Shown here piece by piece: positions 590-7,092 of a DNA stretch of 64,000 nucleotides. The DNA lies in the NCBI GenBank assembly GCA_964016885.1, contig OZ024747.1:33728001-33792000 (forward strand), read 5' to 3'. Numbering within the stretch: the first letter of the stretch is position 1; each line of letters starts with the position of its first letter. Made by a program: the position numbers and the translations under genes. This stretch comes from Eledone cirrhosa (taxonomy: Eukaryota). The notes beneath the pieces are model-generated. The model saw only the letters and a list, made by a program, of their open reading frames with translations. It was not told where the DNA came from and ran no database searches.

Positions 590-1176
590 GGAGTGAAATT
601 TAAGTAAGTAATTTAATTTTTATAATTTTCTTATTTTACGTCTGTCATATAATTGTTCTGCATCCTCTTGCATTGAACCACAAAGTTACTAAGACAAAAC
701 CTATAGATTTGCTAGCATAGGTATGCATCTGTATATATATGTTGGTAGATATACTAATTCTTTATAATTATATCCAAATTATTTTGTTGAGCAAAATTTT
801 GCCAAAACTGCTACTATAGTTCAGAGTAATAGTTCGGCTACTCTCTACTTAACACTCCACTCCTCACTGATTAACCTCGATGTCACGTGATTGATTCTTT
901 TGAATTTGCCCCCGACCAAGTAGGCAGTGATTTTTTCAATGTCTTGGAATTTAGTCCACGCTTGCTTTTTTCCATCCACTGAATTATTTTTGTATAAATT
1001 CCCTGTGTCCACGCATTGCCTGGGAACTTAGCTGAGAATAGACTTCCTGATGACGAAAAGCCTTCTGCATGTGTTCAATTCGGAAACCATGTTTATTCCC
1101 TTTCAGAAACTAATTAGTTGGAGTGAAATCTTAGTAATTTAATTTTTATAATTTTCTTATTTTACGTCTTTCATAT
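590..1176 (+). mobile_element. Retrozyme-like non-coding element A (530-nt monomer plus ~57-nt terminal direct repeat)
   Basis: 590-650 repeats at 1120-1176. The repeat starts at the predicted HHR cleavage site (after 1119). No ORF; ends in (TA)n. Confidence 0.75.
1042..1124 (+). ncRNA. Type I hammerhead ribozyme motif (long stem/loop II)
   Basis: acttc-CTGATGA-cgaaaag...ctttca-GAAAC-taatta-GTT-ggagt. Stem I acttc/ggagt has one G-U pair; stem/loop III (aactaattagtt) is palindromic. Confidence 0.72.
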
Positions 1177-1298
1177 ATATATATATATATATATATATAT
1201 ATATATATATATATATATATATATATATATATATATATATATATATATATATATATATATATATATATATATATATAATATGTATATATATATATATA
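1173..1298. repeat. (TA)n microsatellite
   Basis: Visible directly. Confidence 0.95.
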
Positions 1299-1439
1299 CA
1301 AGCAAATTATAAACGTAAACATGTAAGTATGTTTTTGAAACGGTGCGCGAGTTTGAAATTAGAAATTAGAAATTATAAGCTTTCACCGTATTTTAGACTA
1401 AAGAAATTTGTAGCCTGATAATATATATATATATATATA

Positions 1440-2600
1440 TTGGTAAACGGAATAGAAAATGCTGACAAATTGTTCACAGTTGAAAAATGGTTTAATTAGG
1501 AATAAAAGAGTATTAGTGATTGTATGGGTTAGTATTCAGTTGTGGTTTTAAGTTTTTAAGTTTTTACCGGTTGCGCATTTCTAAATGCTTTTCAAAAATA
1601 ATTTTGAGATAGAGTGTCCGTGCTGTTTGCTCTGATCTGATTAGTTTTGGGAATTCTACCTGTTTTTATGTTAAAAAAATGGCTCCAGCGTTATTTTTGT
1701 GTTGCAAAAATGCTTGTGGTCAAAACAATTTTGATTGGTCGGTAGAGGTCATGTGAATGTAAAAAGTTGATTTTGCGCCAAGACTGGTTTTATGTTAAAA
1801 TGTTAGAAAAGTGGCTCCAGCAAAAATTATTGGTCAAAACAATTTTGATTGGTTGGTAGAGGTCATGTGGATAAAAAATTGGTTTTGCGCCAAGATTGAG
1901 AAATGACTCTTTCACAACAAATATGTGTGTGTGTGTGTGTGTGTGTGTGTGTGTAGTAGTAGTAGTAAGGTGTTCGATGCTGCGACAATAGCCAGCAGCG
2001 ATGTGTGTCAAATGGCTATTAAGATAAGTGTGTGTGTGTGTGTGTGTGTGTGTGTGCGTACATACACACAGCAGAGTCATTCGAAGGTCAAAAGATATTT
2101 TTCACACACACACACATATTTGTTGTGAAAGAGTCATTTCTCAATCTTGGCGCAAAACCAATTTTTTATCCACATGACCTCTACCGACCAATCAAAATTG
2201 TTTTGACCAATAATTTTTGCTGGAGCCACTTTTCTAACATTTTAACATAAAACCAGTCTTGGCGCAAAATCAACTTTTTACATTCACATGACCTCTACCG
2301 ACCAATCAAAATTGTTTTGACCACAAGCATTTTTGCAACACAAAAATAACGCTGGAGCCATTTTTTTAACATAAAAACAGGTAGAATTCCCAAAACTAAT
2401 CAGATCAGAGCAAACAGCACGGACACTCTATCTCAAAATTATTTTTGAAAAGCATTTAGAAATGCGCAACCGGTAAAAACTTAAAAACTTAAAACCACAA
2501 CTGAATACTAACCCATACAATCACTAATACTCTTTTATTCCTAATTAAACCATTTTTCAACTGTGAACAATTTGTCAGCATTTTCTATTCCGTTTACCAA
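1440..2600. mobile_element. Foldback/MITE-like element with 498-bp inverted arms
   Basis: 1440-1937 is the reverse complement of 2103-2600 (only one mismatch noticed). Termini TTGGTAAACGG...CCGTTTACCAA; TA flanks; 165-bp spacer with (GT)n and (AGT)n. Confidence 0.88.
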
Positions 2601-2636
2601 TATATAACTTGTGTGTTACACCTCTATTCTTTTAAC

Positions 2637-3038
2637 TATATATATATATATATATATATATATATAATATGTATATATATATATATATTATGTATATATA
2701 TATATATTATGTATATATATATATATTATGTATATATATATATGTATATATATATATATGTATATATATATAATATGTATATATATATAATATGTATATA
2801 TATATATTATATATATATATATATGTATATAATATATATATTATATATATATATATATATATATGTATATATATATATTATATATATATATATATATGTA
2901 TATAATATATATATATTATATATATATATATGTGTATATATATATATTATATATATATATATATATATATATAATATATATTATATATATATATATATAT
3001 TATATATATATATATATATATATAATATATATATTATA
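2637..3038. repeat. Imperfect (TA)n microsatellite
   Basis: Visible directly. Confidence 0.95.
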
Positions 3039-3083
3039 TTTCGTTTCTGAATTTGTTTAGCAATATTCTTTATCTGAAATCGT

Positions 3084-3931
3084 GTGTTGAAACCGATATT
3101 GTTATACTTTGCGGATTTGGTACGGGTGATGAGAAATGTGTCCCGCATGTACAACCCCGAAGAACTAGAGAGACACATACAACACTTCATCCACCGTATG
3201 CAGTTCTCTGGCTACAATCAGAGAGATAGAATCAGAGTGTATAAAGGAGCCAGAACCAAATGGGAAAAAATGGTAAATAATGACATAAATGGGACCTGCC
3301 CCGTGTATAGGAGCACATTTTGGAATAGAATAGAAAGAACTAGGAACAAGGCCAATAGAATAAACTCATGGTATGATAGCAATAAATACCAGAGTGTAAT
3401 GTTCATCAATACAACCCCTAGAGGCGAACTAGCCTACAAATTTAGAAGGGCCCTAAATAAAAATAATCTCAATATTAAGATAGTAGAAAGACCAGGTACC
3501 TCCGTAAAAACACTTATTAGCAAGACATACCGGTTCCAAAGACCCTCATGTATAGATAAGAAATGTATAACCTGTAAAATAAGCCCCAATATTAACTGTA
3601 AAACTAGAAATGTAGTGTATAGCATAAGATGTACTGAAGGACAATGTAGAAACAAAAATATAGTGTACATAGGTGAGACAGCTCGTAGTATAGGGGAACG
3701 AATAAATGAACACTGGCGAGAATCCAAGATAATAAAGAATCATCTGTGCTCTACCAACATGCTAAGATAGAACACAGGGGTAGATTTGAGAACATAGAAA
3801 TAAAAATAGAATCCACACACAGAAAAGACGCAATGTTTAGGCAAATTACAGAGGCAGTAAGCATAAAAGAATTAAAACCAAAATTAAATAGAAAATATGA
3901 GTGGAACAGCAACATCACAACTTACAATTAA
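3084..3931 (+). pseudogene. Penelope-like element ORF remnant: RT C-terminus, Cys-rich linker and GIY-YIG endonuclease, frameshifted near 3720-3750
   Basis: NVVYSIRC...VYIGETARSIGERINEH (GIY-YIG), upstream C-x4-C-x2-C-x7-C linker, continued in the next frame by HAKIEH...RQITEAVSIKELKPKLNRKYEW. Confidence 0.9.
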
Positions 3932-5354: not shown

Positions 5355-5440
5355 ATATATATATATATATATATATATATATATATATATATATATAGAG
5401 AGAGAGAGAGAGAGAGAGAGAGAGAGAGAGAGAGAGAGAG
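5355..5440. repeat. (TA)n(GA)n compound microsatellite
   Basis: Visible directly. Confidence 0.95.
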
Positions 5441-6135
5441 TGTAAGATTAATATATCTGAGGGTACAATGTACCCCCAGAAATGAGAGCTACCCGAATAG
5501 GTAAATATTTATATTATATTTTTTAATTTTGATTAATTTTAATTGTAAATTAATTATGATTTATTTTGAAAAATTGGTTGAATTTTACTTGTTCTGCTTA
5601 TCTTCATATTAAGTTCTGGTATATCAAATTAATACCATAGAACCACCTTGAATCATAGACAACCATGTATTTCTGGGGGTACATTGTACCCTCAGATAGA
5701 TTAACCTTACACTTTATTCTCCGATTATGTAGAGAAAAAATTCCGTCGTTCTATCTAGCTGCTAAAAATTTATTTTTTTGGTGGCGAGCATAGACAACAA
5801 GTCTACGATTTCCCGCCTTCACTATACACCAACGTATTTATGGGTCTCTTTCACGACCTTTCAGACCTGTATTAGTTGGAGTGAGGTCATATATTTTATC
5901 GTTCCTGGGGTTTTTAACCCTAGGAAAGGAAAATGCTTCTCTGATGATCTTTGCTTTTCCATTAATATCCATGTGATATTTAATGTTTTGCAAAGTGAAA
6001 CTGTACAGTAAGAGCTGCCCGAATAGGTAAATATTTATATTATATTTTTTAATTTTGATTAATTTTAATTGTAAATTAATTTTGAGTTATTTTGAAAAGT
6101 TGGTTGAATTTTACTTGTTCTGCTTATCTTCATAT
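5439..6135 (+). mobile_element. Retrozyme-like non-coding element B (526-nt monomer, 125-nt direct repeat, 45-nt 5' inversion)
   Basis: 5485-5609 repeats at 6011-6135, starting at the HHR cleavage site. 5439-5483 is the reverse complement of 5669-5713 (2 mismatches). Ends in (TA)n. Confidence 0.82.
5935..6015 (+). ncRNA. Type I hammerhead ribozyme with extended stem II
   Basis: gcttct-CTGATGA-t ctttgc...cattaatatc catgt gatatttaatg...gcaaag t-GAAAC-tgtaca-GTA-agagc. Palindromic actgtacagt; predicted cleavage after 6010. Confidence 0.88.
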
Positions 6136-6223
6136 ATATATATATATATATATATATATATATATATATATATATATACATTATTCAAAATATTAATAAA
6201 TGAAGACGTTCACATAATCAAAA

Positions 6224-6293
6224 TATGTTTTATTATATATATTTAGGAGGTACTGTGCTATTTTTTCAGTACGCCCTCATCAGATAAAATATA
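6224..6293 (-). ncRNA. Degenerate type I hammerhead motif (GAAA changed to TAAA)
   Basis: Minus strand: atattttat-CTGATGA-gggcgtactg...cagtacctcc-tAAA-tatata-TA-ataaaacat. Confidence 0.6.
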
Positions 6294-6810
6294 TGAATTG
6301 ACATACCTCAACTGTCTTGTTGGTTCAATTCCAGTATTGGCAGTGATTTATTATAACAAATCTCAATATTTATATACCACAAATAATAACATGATAAAAT
6401 TAAATATTATGAAGAAGAGGATGTGGAGCGAGATATAAGTATAAGACGGGTGAGTATGAAAAAATGTAAGAAGAAATAATTAAACACATACGTACATAAA
6501 TATCTAAATGCGTAAATATCCGTGTTAGGGAAGAAACGGAAGAGAGATGGAGATAGATAGAAAGAAAGAAAGAAGAAGAGAGAAAAAAGAAGAGAATATA
6601 GAAGAAAGAGAGAGAGAGAGATAGAAGAGAGAAGAGGGAAGACATAACTACAAAAAGGAAAGAATGAAAGAAGGAAAGAAGAAAGGGACATGATGCGTGA
6701 CCGTTGTTTTCAAATATTAAGTCAAATAGAAGCGACCAATTAAATATCGTGAAATGTTTAATATCTTTAGTATTTGGTTAGGTTGTCCTTCCCGTTCCGT
6801 TTAGCCATGT

Positions 6811-6860
6811 CCATTACGAGCTGAGGATCCGCTAAGGTGAAACAATTGTTCTCGGTATGG
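6811..6860 (+). ncRNA. Minimal type I hammerhead ribozyme
   Basis: ccattacgag-CTGAGGA-tcc gctaa ggt-GAAAC-aatt-GTT-ctcggtatgg. Stem I cgag/ctcg plus ccat/atgg; palindromic aacaattgtt. Confidence 0.82.
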
Positions 6861-7021
6861 TGAACTAACTGTTGTGTAAGCACTTCTACCTAACTCGTCC
6901 CATGAACTGAGTGCTCTACCACTACGCATGTTACCTTCCAGTGTTCTACCACTATATATATATATATATAGAAATATATATATATAAGAAGAAATTAAAA
7001 GATGGTTTAAAAAGTGCCATG

Positions 7022-7092
7022 TATTTTATTATGCCCATTTCAAAAACAAATATCATCCACTGACGATATTTGCGTTCTCATCAGATAAAATA
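7022..7092 (-). ncRNA. Type I hammerhead ribozyme
   Basis: Minus strand: tattttat-CTGATGA-gaacgcaaatatcgtc agtg gatgatatttgttttt-GAAA-tgggca-TA-ataaaata. Perfect 8-bp stem I and a long stem II. Confidence 0.85.

Follow-up and report, generated by a model that had tools for sequence, protein, structure and literature searches.

Hammerhead retrozymes with Penelope-like insertion footprints at a TA hotspot of Eledone cirrhosa

Which enzymes write non-coding hammerhead-ribozyme units into animal genomes, and from which form of RNA, is the question raised by positions 590-7092 of the window, the 64,000-nucleotide stretch of Eledone cirrhosa DNA analysed here. That Penelope-like elements (PLEs) mobilise animal retrozymes via circular RNA is a proposal based on their co-occurrence and on similarity to pseudo-LTRs, according to the available text of two reports (Cervera and de la Pena 2020, PMC7229834; Li, Clavereau and Pollet 2026, 10.64898/2026.07.22.740005). 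A sequence-only reading of the locus drew on this PLE link (a PLE origin is argued in print) and combined all hammerheads of the segment into one clustered system.

Hammerhead motifs and their hosts in the window

All six hammerhead motifs named by that reading are present, five of them with an intact core. A type I hammerhead descriptor matched 1042-1124(+), 5937-6014(+) and 7022-7092(-) within 590-7092, and found nothing in any of 200 dinucleotide shuffles of this segment. Allowing an unpaired base before stem II also recovered the families of 4162-4206(+) and 6811-6860(+), and 6228-6289(-) was matched with a relaxed core only. As the window copy of this last motif carries TAAA where family copies carry GAAA, the ribozyme is probably dead here. 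Rfam searches returned no hammerhead family, either in window positions 1-12000 at E<=5 or, at gathering score, in four related loci; thus, the motif calls rest on the custom descriptor, palindromic stems III and conservation. When the six motifs were folded alone, z lay beyond -2 in one. A further descriptor match was observed at 51391-51477, inside a coding-like region.

Two non-coding families, A and B, and at least five PLE families have inserted independently of one another at this TA hotspot (Table 1). The proposed single system accordingly dissolves into six separate insertions in a common TA-microsatellite target. Each segment had been described as bounded by (TA)n, but the left side of A is non-TA, and the segments of families C and D are fused head to head with a 4-nt overlap, TA being absent between them. 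Four of the six motifs are truncated PLE ends (one Neptune/Nematis-type, two Hydra-clade and one more PLE-type), so that three motifs counted as system members beside the GIY-YIG remnant are ordinary PLE 3' ends, two of them of Hydra ORFs.

Table 1. Features of the hammerhead-bearing segment (window coordinates)
Feature	Position	Strand	Remarks
A copy: 530-nt unit + 53 nt to fixed end E1, then (TA)n	590..1172	+	unit 590-1119 starts at predicted cleavage site
A bulged hairpin 1 (predicted)	655..678	+	9 nt beyond internal E1 (~646)
A bulged hairpin 2 (predicted)	771..792	+	beyond internal E2 (~765)
A type I hammerhead: long stem II, 12-nt palindromic stem III	1042..1124	+	predicted cut after 1119
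Family X: two-armed 3' end, very young Neptune/Nematis-type PLE	1439..2632	.	negative control
Family P: truncated Neptune/Nematis-type PLE	3045..4368	+	direct arm with broken GIY-YIG frame, ends E1
Family P pseudo-LTR minimal type I hammerhead	4162..4206	+	
B insertion, 41-nt inverted arm	5443..5483	-	ends at fixed end E2
B copy: 526-nt unit + 121 nt to fixed end E1, then (TA)n	5485..6131	+	unit 5485-6010 starts at predicted cleavage site
B bulged hairpin 1 (predicted)	5613..5643	+	beyond internal E1
B bulged hairpin 2 (predicted)	5717..5736	+	beyond internal E2
B type I hammerhead: long stem II, palindromic stem III	5937..6014	+	predicted cut after 6010
Family C: long-3' UTR 3' end of Hydra-clade PLE, ends E1	6180..6784	-	hammerhead 6228-6289, core broken here
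Family D: 3' end of another Hydra-clade PLE, ends E2	6781..6952	+	hammerhead 6811-6860
Family E: PLE-type 3' end	6987..7125	-	hammerhead 7022-7092; hammerhead + tail related to C

The motif assigned to a GIY-YIG Penelope-like remnant was placed correctly and belongs to family P, of which 3078-3767 gives a GIY-YIG match at E 4e-4, below the Pfam cut-off. Its short inverted tail arm (3045-3111, end E2) is joined to the direct arm. Elsewhere, P copies are 97-98% identical and include intact frames of 1100-1240 codons, with a (TA)n target and a one-sided tail. Families P and X have a C-terminal GIY-YIG (Pfam), together with a CX2-5CxxC linker and CCHH read by eye; neither a hammerhead nor a bulged hairpin was seen in X. 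The motifs of C and D were traced to Hydra ORFs, C through its endonuclease end only and in broken frames. These two and a further family, H, have CxxC/CxH replacing CCHH, a CxCx5C linker and a (TA)n target, as Hydra-clade elements do, and D and H also have DKT and RWK-like motifs (linker and motifs read by eye). Pfam gave no match on full-length P or H proteins, and BLASTP similarity between the two was negligible. The Hydra clade is represented in the same genome by very young intact copies, with a 785-codon frame in all eight loci fetched. No ORF was traced for family E; a tie to a Hydra ORF was considered and rejected, the E tails in loci L253 and L256 being separate insertions.

Anatomy and insertion footprints of families A and B

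Both periods claimed for the non-coding units, 530 nt (A) and 526 nt (B), are correct. First-look searches gave 2686 and 1977 candidates, of which 40 were scored for each family; in these samples, which are the best-scoring matches only, copies are 91-97% identical and dispersed over many contigs, with (TA)n at their ends. The longest ATG frames have 66 and 69 codons. Window copies carry one hammerhead each, and the core is intact in 76 of 82 complete A copies and 56 of 64 complete B copies. Stems II are extended (~50 nt) and inner stems III palindromic (8 nt); between A and a relative 82-85% identical, stem II has changed on both sides. Most arms are shorter than two units, with maxima of 3.96 (A) and 2.33 (B) units, and relatives at 65-85% identity retain the unit form. 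Circular folds reach z ~ -6, and constraining the monomers to the hammerhead costs 2.8 kcal/mol in A and 5.9 kcal/mol in B relative to the unconstrained fold. By anatomy, A and B are non-LTR retrozymes, for which self-cleavage and circles are predicted. A>G is not in excess among rare variants, as RNA-editing scars would have made it: there are 36 against 55 T>C in family A (p 0.67) and 29 against 35 in family B (p 0.70).

Had copies always been attached to a PLE ORF, they would have been ordinary pseudo-LTR debris. A PLE protein match lies within 900 nt upstream in only 11 of 134 arms and the junction is never fixed; upstream of the unit, these 134 arms have a further unit, an inverted arm or unrelated DNA. 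Among the few PLE families sampled from this genome, a sequence search found no ORF-bearing parent with an A- or B-like pseudo-LTR, and no alignment of A or B to C, D, E or P exceeded shuffles.

The 3' ends of the arms follow the PLE pattern. Among 70 A arms, 38 end at E1, 24 at E2 and 8 elsewhere, and the corresponding counts for 63 uncut B arms are 40, 22 and 1; (TA)n follows in 63/70 and 56/63. Two-armed insertions make up 26/43 (A) and 18/46 (B). Of the 44 head-to-head pairs in all, 8 were left out for an unclassed end, and E1 is joined to E2 in 33 of the remaining 36 (p 2e-7). Two B loci resemble one duplicated event and were counted unmerged in these end and pair tallies. This opposite-end rule is the PLE 'tail' footprint. 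Fixed 3' ends, a one-sided tail, variable 5' truncation and an inverted 5' arm are all present, and the pattern agrees with published PLEs, in which the tail is one-sided and RT starts at two sites (Craig et al. 2021, PMC8557442; Frangieh et al. 2024, PMC11167929). The view of A and B as multi-copy, non-coding, tandem, hammerhead-bearing, (TA)n-inserting elements with PLE footprints is therefore supported.

A predicted bulged hairpin lies 4-11 nt beyond nine of ten A/B-lineage ends (5/5 A, 4/5 B), and beyond five of six ends of ORF-linked Hydra families (both ends of H and C; E1 of D). The paired bases differ among these hairpins. The descriptor was composed after the sequences had been inspected, and its shuffle rate is 1-5% per interval searched. 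In a prospective test beyond D E2, 0/15 full-length D copies matched, although by eye a displaced version of the hairpin can be fitted at this end. The hairpin is missing at P E2, at both X ends and at the one remaining B-lineage end, and the match at P E1 is formal only (2-bp upper stem, 35-nt loop). At both P ends, the next sequence is another hexamer, common to the two. In the window copy of A, a private change at 772 breaks one pair of hairpin 2. Since the ends lie beside hairpins as in Hydra-type Penelope, Hydra-type enzymes likely copy A and B. An unbulged second hairpin and a pyrimidine motif were also observed before E2.

Template and helper enzyme

Private variants are common to tandem units (29/213) as often as to opposite arms (19/167); for comparison, rare variants are common to separate insertions in 132/31671 (A) and 84/17485 (B) comparisons. 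Furthermore, both arms cross the cleavage site in 29/43 two-armed insertions. This sharing and read-through favour a circular template, as far as can be judged from genomic copies. Three arrays have near-identical adjacent units; unit homogenisation may also be achieved by local duplication or gene conversion.

On balance, we lean towards A and B being non-autonomous retrozymes that the enzymes of Hydra-clade Penelope elements write to DNA, with circular RNA probably serving as template in most cases. A copy more than one unit long would be transcribed, and paired hammerheads, the dimer favoured by the palindromic stems III, would release a 530- or 526-nt monomer that a host ligase would close into a circle, as in published retrozymes. 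A Hydra-type RT-endonuclease would then bind both bulged hairpins and nick both strands of (TA)n. cDNA would start 4-11 nt 5' of each hairpin, at the ends mapped above, and run for a variable length, usually through the cleavage site and for up to four units, before the two cDNAs were joined in the head-to-head structure seen in the genome.

A linear template appears unlikely, yet it is the alternative to be taken most seriously. It invokes the same enzymes and start sites, with read-through transcripts of multi-unit loci as template, sometimes cut by the hammerhead and with the circle unneeded. The anole element, the one PLE assayed in vitro so far, used mainly uncut RNA as template (Frangieh et al. 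2024); the four-unit array L087 is mosaic; and the shortness of most arms is as this account would have it. Arms stopping within -5..+22 of the cleavage site are in surplus (among 88 unbiased arms, 11 do so where 4.2 would be expected, p 0.003, in a bin picked after inspection), as run-off from cut linear RNA would be; this surplus also speaks for the preferred reading, in which the hammerhead would cut at that site. However, because copying starts short of hairpin 2, each round from a linear template would lose sequence and require long master arrays, whereas the longest arms are those given above, and equal sharing between tandem units and opposite arms is not expected from different units of a linear source.

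The GIY-YIG remnant adjoining A and B had been read as their partner, and it is improbable that this Neptune/Nematis-type family P, or family X, is the helper. P is young, has intact frames, targets (TA)n and leaves the same one-sided tail, and its hammerhead region scores z 3.5 against that of A and z 2.7 against that of B (the score is reached by 3/300 shuffles). But whole A/B units do not exceed shuffles against full-length P, both P ends are followed by the differing hexamer, and the hairpin common to A, B and the Hydra-clade families is missing at P E2 and both X ends and matched only formally at P E1. Still harder to credit is an origin of A and B as pseudo-LTR debris of unseen autonomous PLEs, with tandems formed by post-insertion DNA duplication. 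Debris of this kind accounts for the four neighbouring motifs, the available text of Li et al. proposes that PLE termini are amplified locally, and near-identical adjacent units would follow from it. Against this, a fixed ORF junction occurs in none of the 134 arms, inverted arms too pass through the unit junction, and the 65-85% identical relatives hold the unit form.

A stronger version of the Hydra-helper reading is offered tentatively: A and B may be minimal circular-RNA parasites of Hydra PLEs, consisting of a dimerising hammerhead and two bulged hairpins that load two RT-endonuclease subunits. Starting from the two strands of a broken TA repeat, these subunits would copy their way around the circle. 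The hairpin would then be a transferable cis-signal specifying which clade is the helper, any circular RNA could be written into DNA, and the C/D fusion would be a two-ended event from two different RNAs.

Relation to known elements

Like metazoan non-LTR retrozymes, A and B are non-coding tandem units of low GC with one type I hammerhead each, many dispersed copies and PLEs beside them. Their monomers had been thought unusually long; they exceed the 170-400 nt given for invertebrate circles in the available text of Cervera and de la Pena (2020) but lie within the 51-972 bp that Li, Clavereau and Pollet (2026) give for animal retrozymes in theirs. Their hammerheads are set apart by stems II of ~50 nt and by inner stems III that are 8-nt palindromes, and their insertions by two fixed ends, two arms and hairpins, features absent from retrozymes as the available text of both reports describes them. 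Unlike 24/57 Xenopus families in the accessible part of Li et al., whose methods include no mollusc, A and B gave no parent pseudo-LTR among the PLE families sampled. Comparison with these texts suggests that the insertion footprints and the cis-signal are new. A and B supply two start sites at constant positions, a rule that pairs opposite ends, and a predicted hairpin shared with one PLE clade; given these and the young intact Hydra copies, a single in vitro assay can test which enzyme is the helper, what form the template takes and what the hammerhead contributes, and the long-proposed PLE/circular-RNA route thereby becomes testable.

In (TA)n target, hammerheads, inverted 5'-truncated arms and one-sided tail, A and B resemble Hydra-clade PLEs, which include Hydra-1_Obim, as presented in the available text of Craig et al. 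(2021), and they have the end-adjacent hairpin in common with H, C and D E1; that text does not describe this hairpin for the clade. Unlike these PLEs, they encode nothing, and their tails measure ~120 and ~100 nt against the 30-40 bp given there. Non-autonomous Chlamys PLEs such as MRC1, in the same source, are likewise non-coding, PLE-mobilised and inserted in head-to-tail multiple copies, but are algal, mostly without hammerheads, and have 3' ends resembling those of autonomous partners. In the Poseidon PLE of the green anole, two internal RT starts 3' of the hammerhead similarly define the tail, both strands are nicked in AT-rich DNA and a protein dimer is predicted (Frangieh et al. 2024). 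Unlike A and B, Poseidon is autonomous and of a different clade, its RT starts fall within the ORF in an AC-rich stem-loop, and in vitro it used a linear template for which the hammerhead was not needed.

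Hammerhead families and the PLE cluster

Six type I hammerhead motifs had been proposed between 590 and 7092 by the sequence-only reading, and a motif descriptor located all of them, the sixth with a broken core. The strict type I descriptor returned three motifs in this interval, against no hit in any of 200 shuffles, and two further motifs were matched once an unpaired base before stem II was permitted, a feature described for hammerheads of Penelope-like elements (PLEs) in the available text of PMC4209133. An Rfam search did not detect the six motifs. A first look at the genome (3.0 Gb) gave 2686 candidates for family A, 1977 for B, 4448 for P, 2407 for C, 1013 for D and 772 for E (40 scored per family); these figures are not copy numbers. 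Because each motif sits in its own separate repeat family, and a seventh insertion (X), in which no hammerhead was seen, lies among them, the cluster is a (TA)n hotspot. Hydra and Naiad PLEs, those of Octopus among them, have a published preference for (TA)n (available text of PMC8557442).

Full-length relatives of P comprise a pseudo-LTR (the PLE terminal repeat), a frame of 1239 codons and a second pseudo-LTR with tail, and the linker and CCHH motifs place P with Neptune/Nematis as defined in the same source (PMC8557442). X, from a very young family of Neptune/Nematis type, is a two-armed end; its copies are 99% identical, its endonuclease is of that type, and no hammerhead was seen in its 3' end. 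C has a long 3' UTR with a Hydra-type endonuclease upstream, and E is similar to C, although tracing E reached no ORF. D is joined to a Hydra-type frame carrying DKT and CxCx5C (clade definition from the text available of PMC8557442), and its protein resembles Hydra-1_Obim by eye. A further Hydra-clade family at other loci, H, is very young (150 of 150 scored matches identical across 150 residues) and has a 785-codon frame in 8/8 loci; its hammerhead-like motif, in which stem I is not clear, escaped the descriptor. Both P and D contain a GC-rich palindrome approximately 60-90 nt before the hammerhead, which we take to resemble an NRF-1-type promoter site.

C and D, which are 3' ends from two distinct Hydra-clade families, meet in a head-to-head fusion that overlaps by 4 nt, with C ending at its first fixed 3' end (E1) and D at its second (E2). 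A single integration using two Hydra RNAs as a mixed template is possible and would fit this single case; the alternative is a deletion between two insertions, and no remainder of C or D was found near the fusion.

Positions of features in the window and at other loci
Feature	Position	Remark
A	590-1172	530-nt unit
X	1439-2632	
P	3045-4368	
GC-rich palindrome, P	4066-4077	
GC-rich palindrome, D	L104-L117	
SINE-like repeat	4650-5115	two tandem copies; frequent in fetched loci too; perhaps akin to octopus SINE
B	5443-6131	526-nt unit
Stretch inside B	5862-5886	
C/D fusion	6180-6952	
Sixth motif	6228-6289	core broken in the window copy only
Hairpin upstream of E hammerhead	7100-7146	loop inverted relative to other E copies
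Reverse-transcriptase and endonuclease fragments	8306-8827; 53318-55628	ordinary non-LTR retrotransposons; below Pfam cut-offs
A relative	L040; L115:1970-2540	82-85% identity
Divergent B relatives	L067:350-920 (-); L131:2400-3030; L027:600-1085; L196:1370-1530	65-75% identity
H	L258-L265	e.g. G000:C4:43407300-43414300

Non-coding tandem units

After merging by coordinate, the A sample comprised 43 insertions with 70 arms and the B sample 46 insertions with 64 arms, the longest arms reaching 3.96 and 2.33 units, respectively. The longest ATG frames were 66 codons in A and 69 in B, and in 11 of 134 arms the 900 nt upstream contained a match to a PLE protein, at a fixed junction in none. Both families are made of non-coding tandem units. 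Relatives at 65-85% identity retain the unit form, with the period of A in the A relative and approximately 470 nt in a B relative (L067). In the A relative, the two sides of stem II are both altered, and the divergent B relatives have a palindromic stem III of odd length. A and B themselves are weakly alike (score 63 vs 38±6, maximum 59 in 200 shuffles). The monomers had been considered unusually long; their size is not new, because the retrozyme units reported in the available text of Li et al. (2026; 10.64898/2026.07.22.740005) span 51-972 bp. At one locus (L160), an A arm follows on from the truncated end of a different hammerhead family upstream, in the same sense and with no intervening TA.

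Among 23 hammerhead clusters from all fetched DNA, the inner stem III of the member shown was a perfect palindrome in 19, a G-U near-palindrome in three and neither in one (manual count). Folding gave no stable hairpin for the stem III stretch of A or B alone, and self-pairing energies of -10.8 (A) and -15.4 kcal/mol (B). This predicted self-pairing would fit dimer activity, which has been published for hammerheads with a weak helix III (PMC7229834 and PMC4209133, available text). Approximately 60 nt upstream of the B hammerhead lies a stretch that by eye looks like the 3' half of the hammerhead of A and may be what is left of an older ribozyme.

Insertion footprint and template

The 3' ends of A lie at about +54 (38/70 arms) or +176 (24/70) after the cleavage point, those of B at about +121 (40/63) or +225 (22/63), and (TA)n follows in 63/70 and 56/63 arms; 5' ends are scattered. 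Two arms stand head to head in 26/43 A and 18/46 B insertions, and 33 of the 36 classifiable pairs combine E1 with E2 (p 2e-7; eight of 44 pairs were left out with one end unclassed). The same two-end pattern recurs in P, X, C, D, E and H. This footprint is the one-sided tail described as a PLE feature (PMC8557442, in part), which in an anole PLE equals the distance between two reverse transcriptase (RT) start sites (PMC11167929, in part). Since the 3' ends and the E1/E2 pairing match such a tail, insertion of A and B by PLE-type target priming from both DNA strands is well supported.

Both arms cross the cleavage site in 29/43 two-armed insertions. On a cut monomer, an RT that starts 54-225 nt past the site would run out of template there, yet both arms cross it; the template is thus a circle or an uncut multimer, and we lean towards circles. 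Insertion-private variants are shared between tandem units in 29 of 213 cases and between opposite arms in 19 of 167, against approximately 0.4-0.5% between insertions; such equal sharing would be expected from one monomer read repeatedly, although later conversion or duplication can mimic it, and one array has a mosaic make-up. The variants showed no sign of editing. Of 88 arms taken irrespective of length, 11 have their 5' stop within -5..+22 of the site, where 4.2 would be expected (p 0.003; bin set once the data had been inspected). This excess suggests either that some templates, a minority, were cut there or that RT stalls at the ribozyme.

Bulged hairpins and the probable helper element

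A bulged hairpin directly beyond E1 was first noticed in A, B, C and E, and a second was then found beyond E2. One descriptor, devised post hoc, was applied to 20 end windows, and matched 5/5 in the A lineage, 4/5 in the B lineage, 2/2 in H, 2/2 in C, 1/1 at D E1 (1-nt bulge) and 2/2 for E and a further C-like family. The hairpins lie 4-11 nt from the end and differ in their paired bases, with a shuffle match rate of 1-5%. P E1 gave a formal match only; P E2, X E1 and X E2 gave none. In a prospective test, D E2 failed in 15/15 copies.

The helper of A and B is quite probably a Hydra-type PLE. The adjacent GIY-YIG remnant, P, had been proposed as their partner; with one end lacking the hairpin and the other matching formally, it is a very unlikely helper, and probably the wrong PLE. 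Of the few families sampled, none carried a pseudo-LTR similar to A or B that would mark it as their parent, and a Hydra endonuclease search alone gave approximately 45,000 candidates. Neither cephalopod retrozymes nor this hairpin were found in the literature searched, mostly outside subscription journals and Repbase. As elements, A and B belong to a known type; the families are new, and their footprints and hairpins set them apart.
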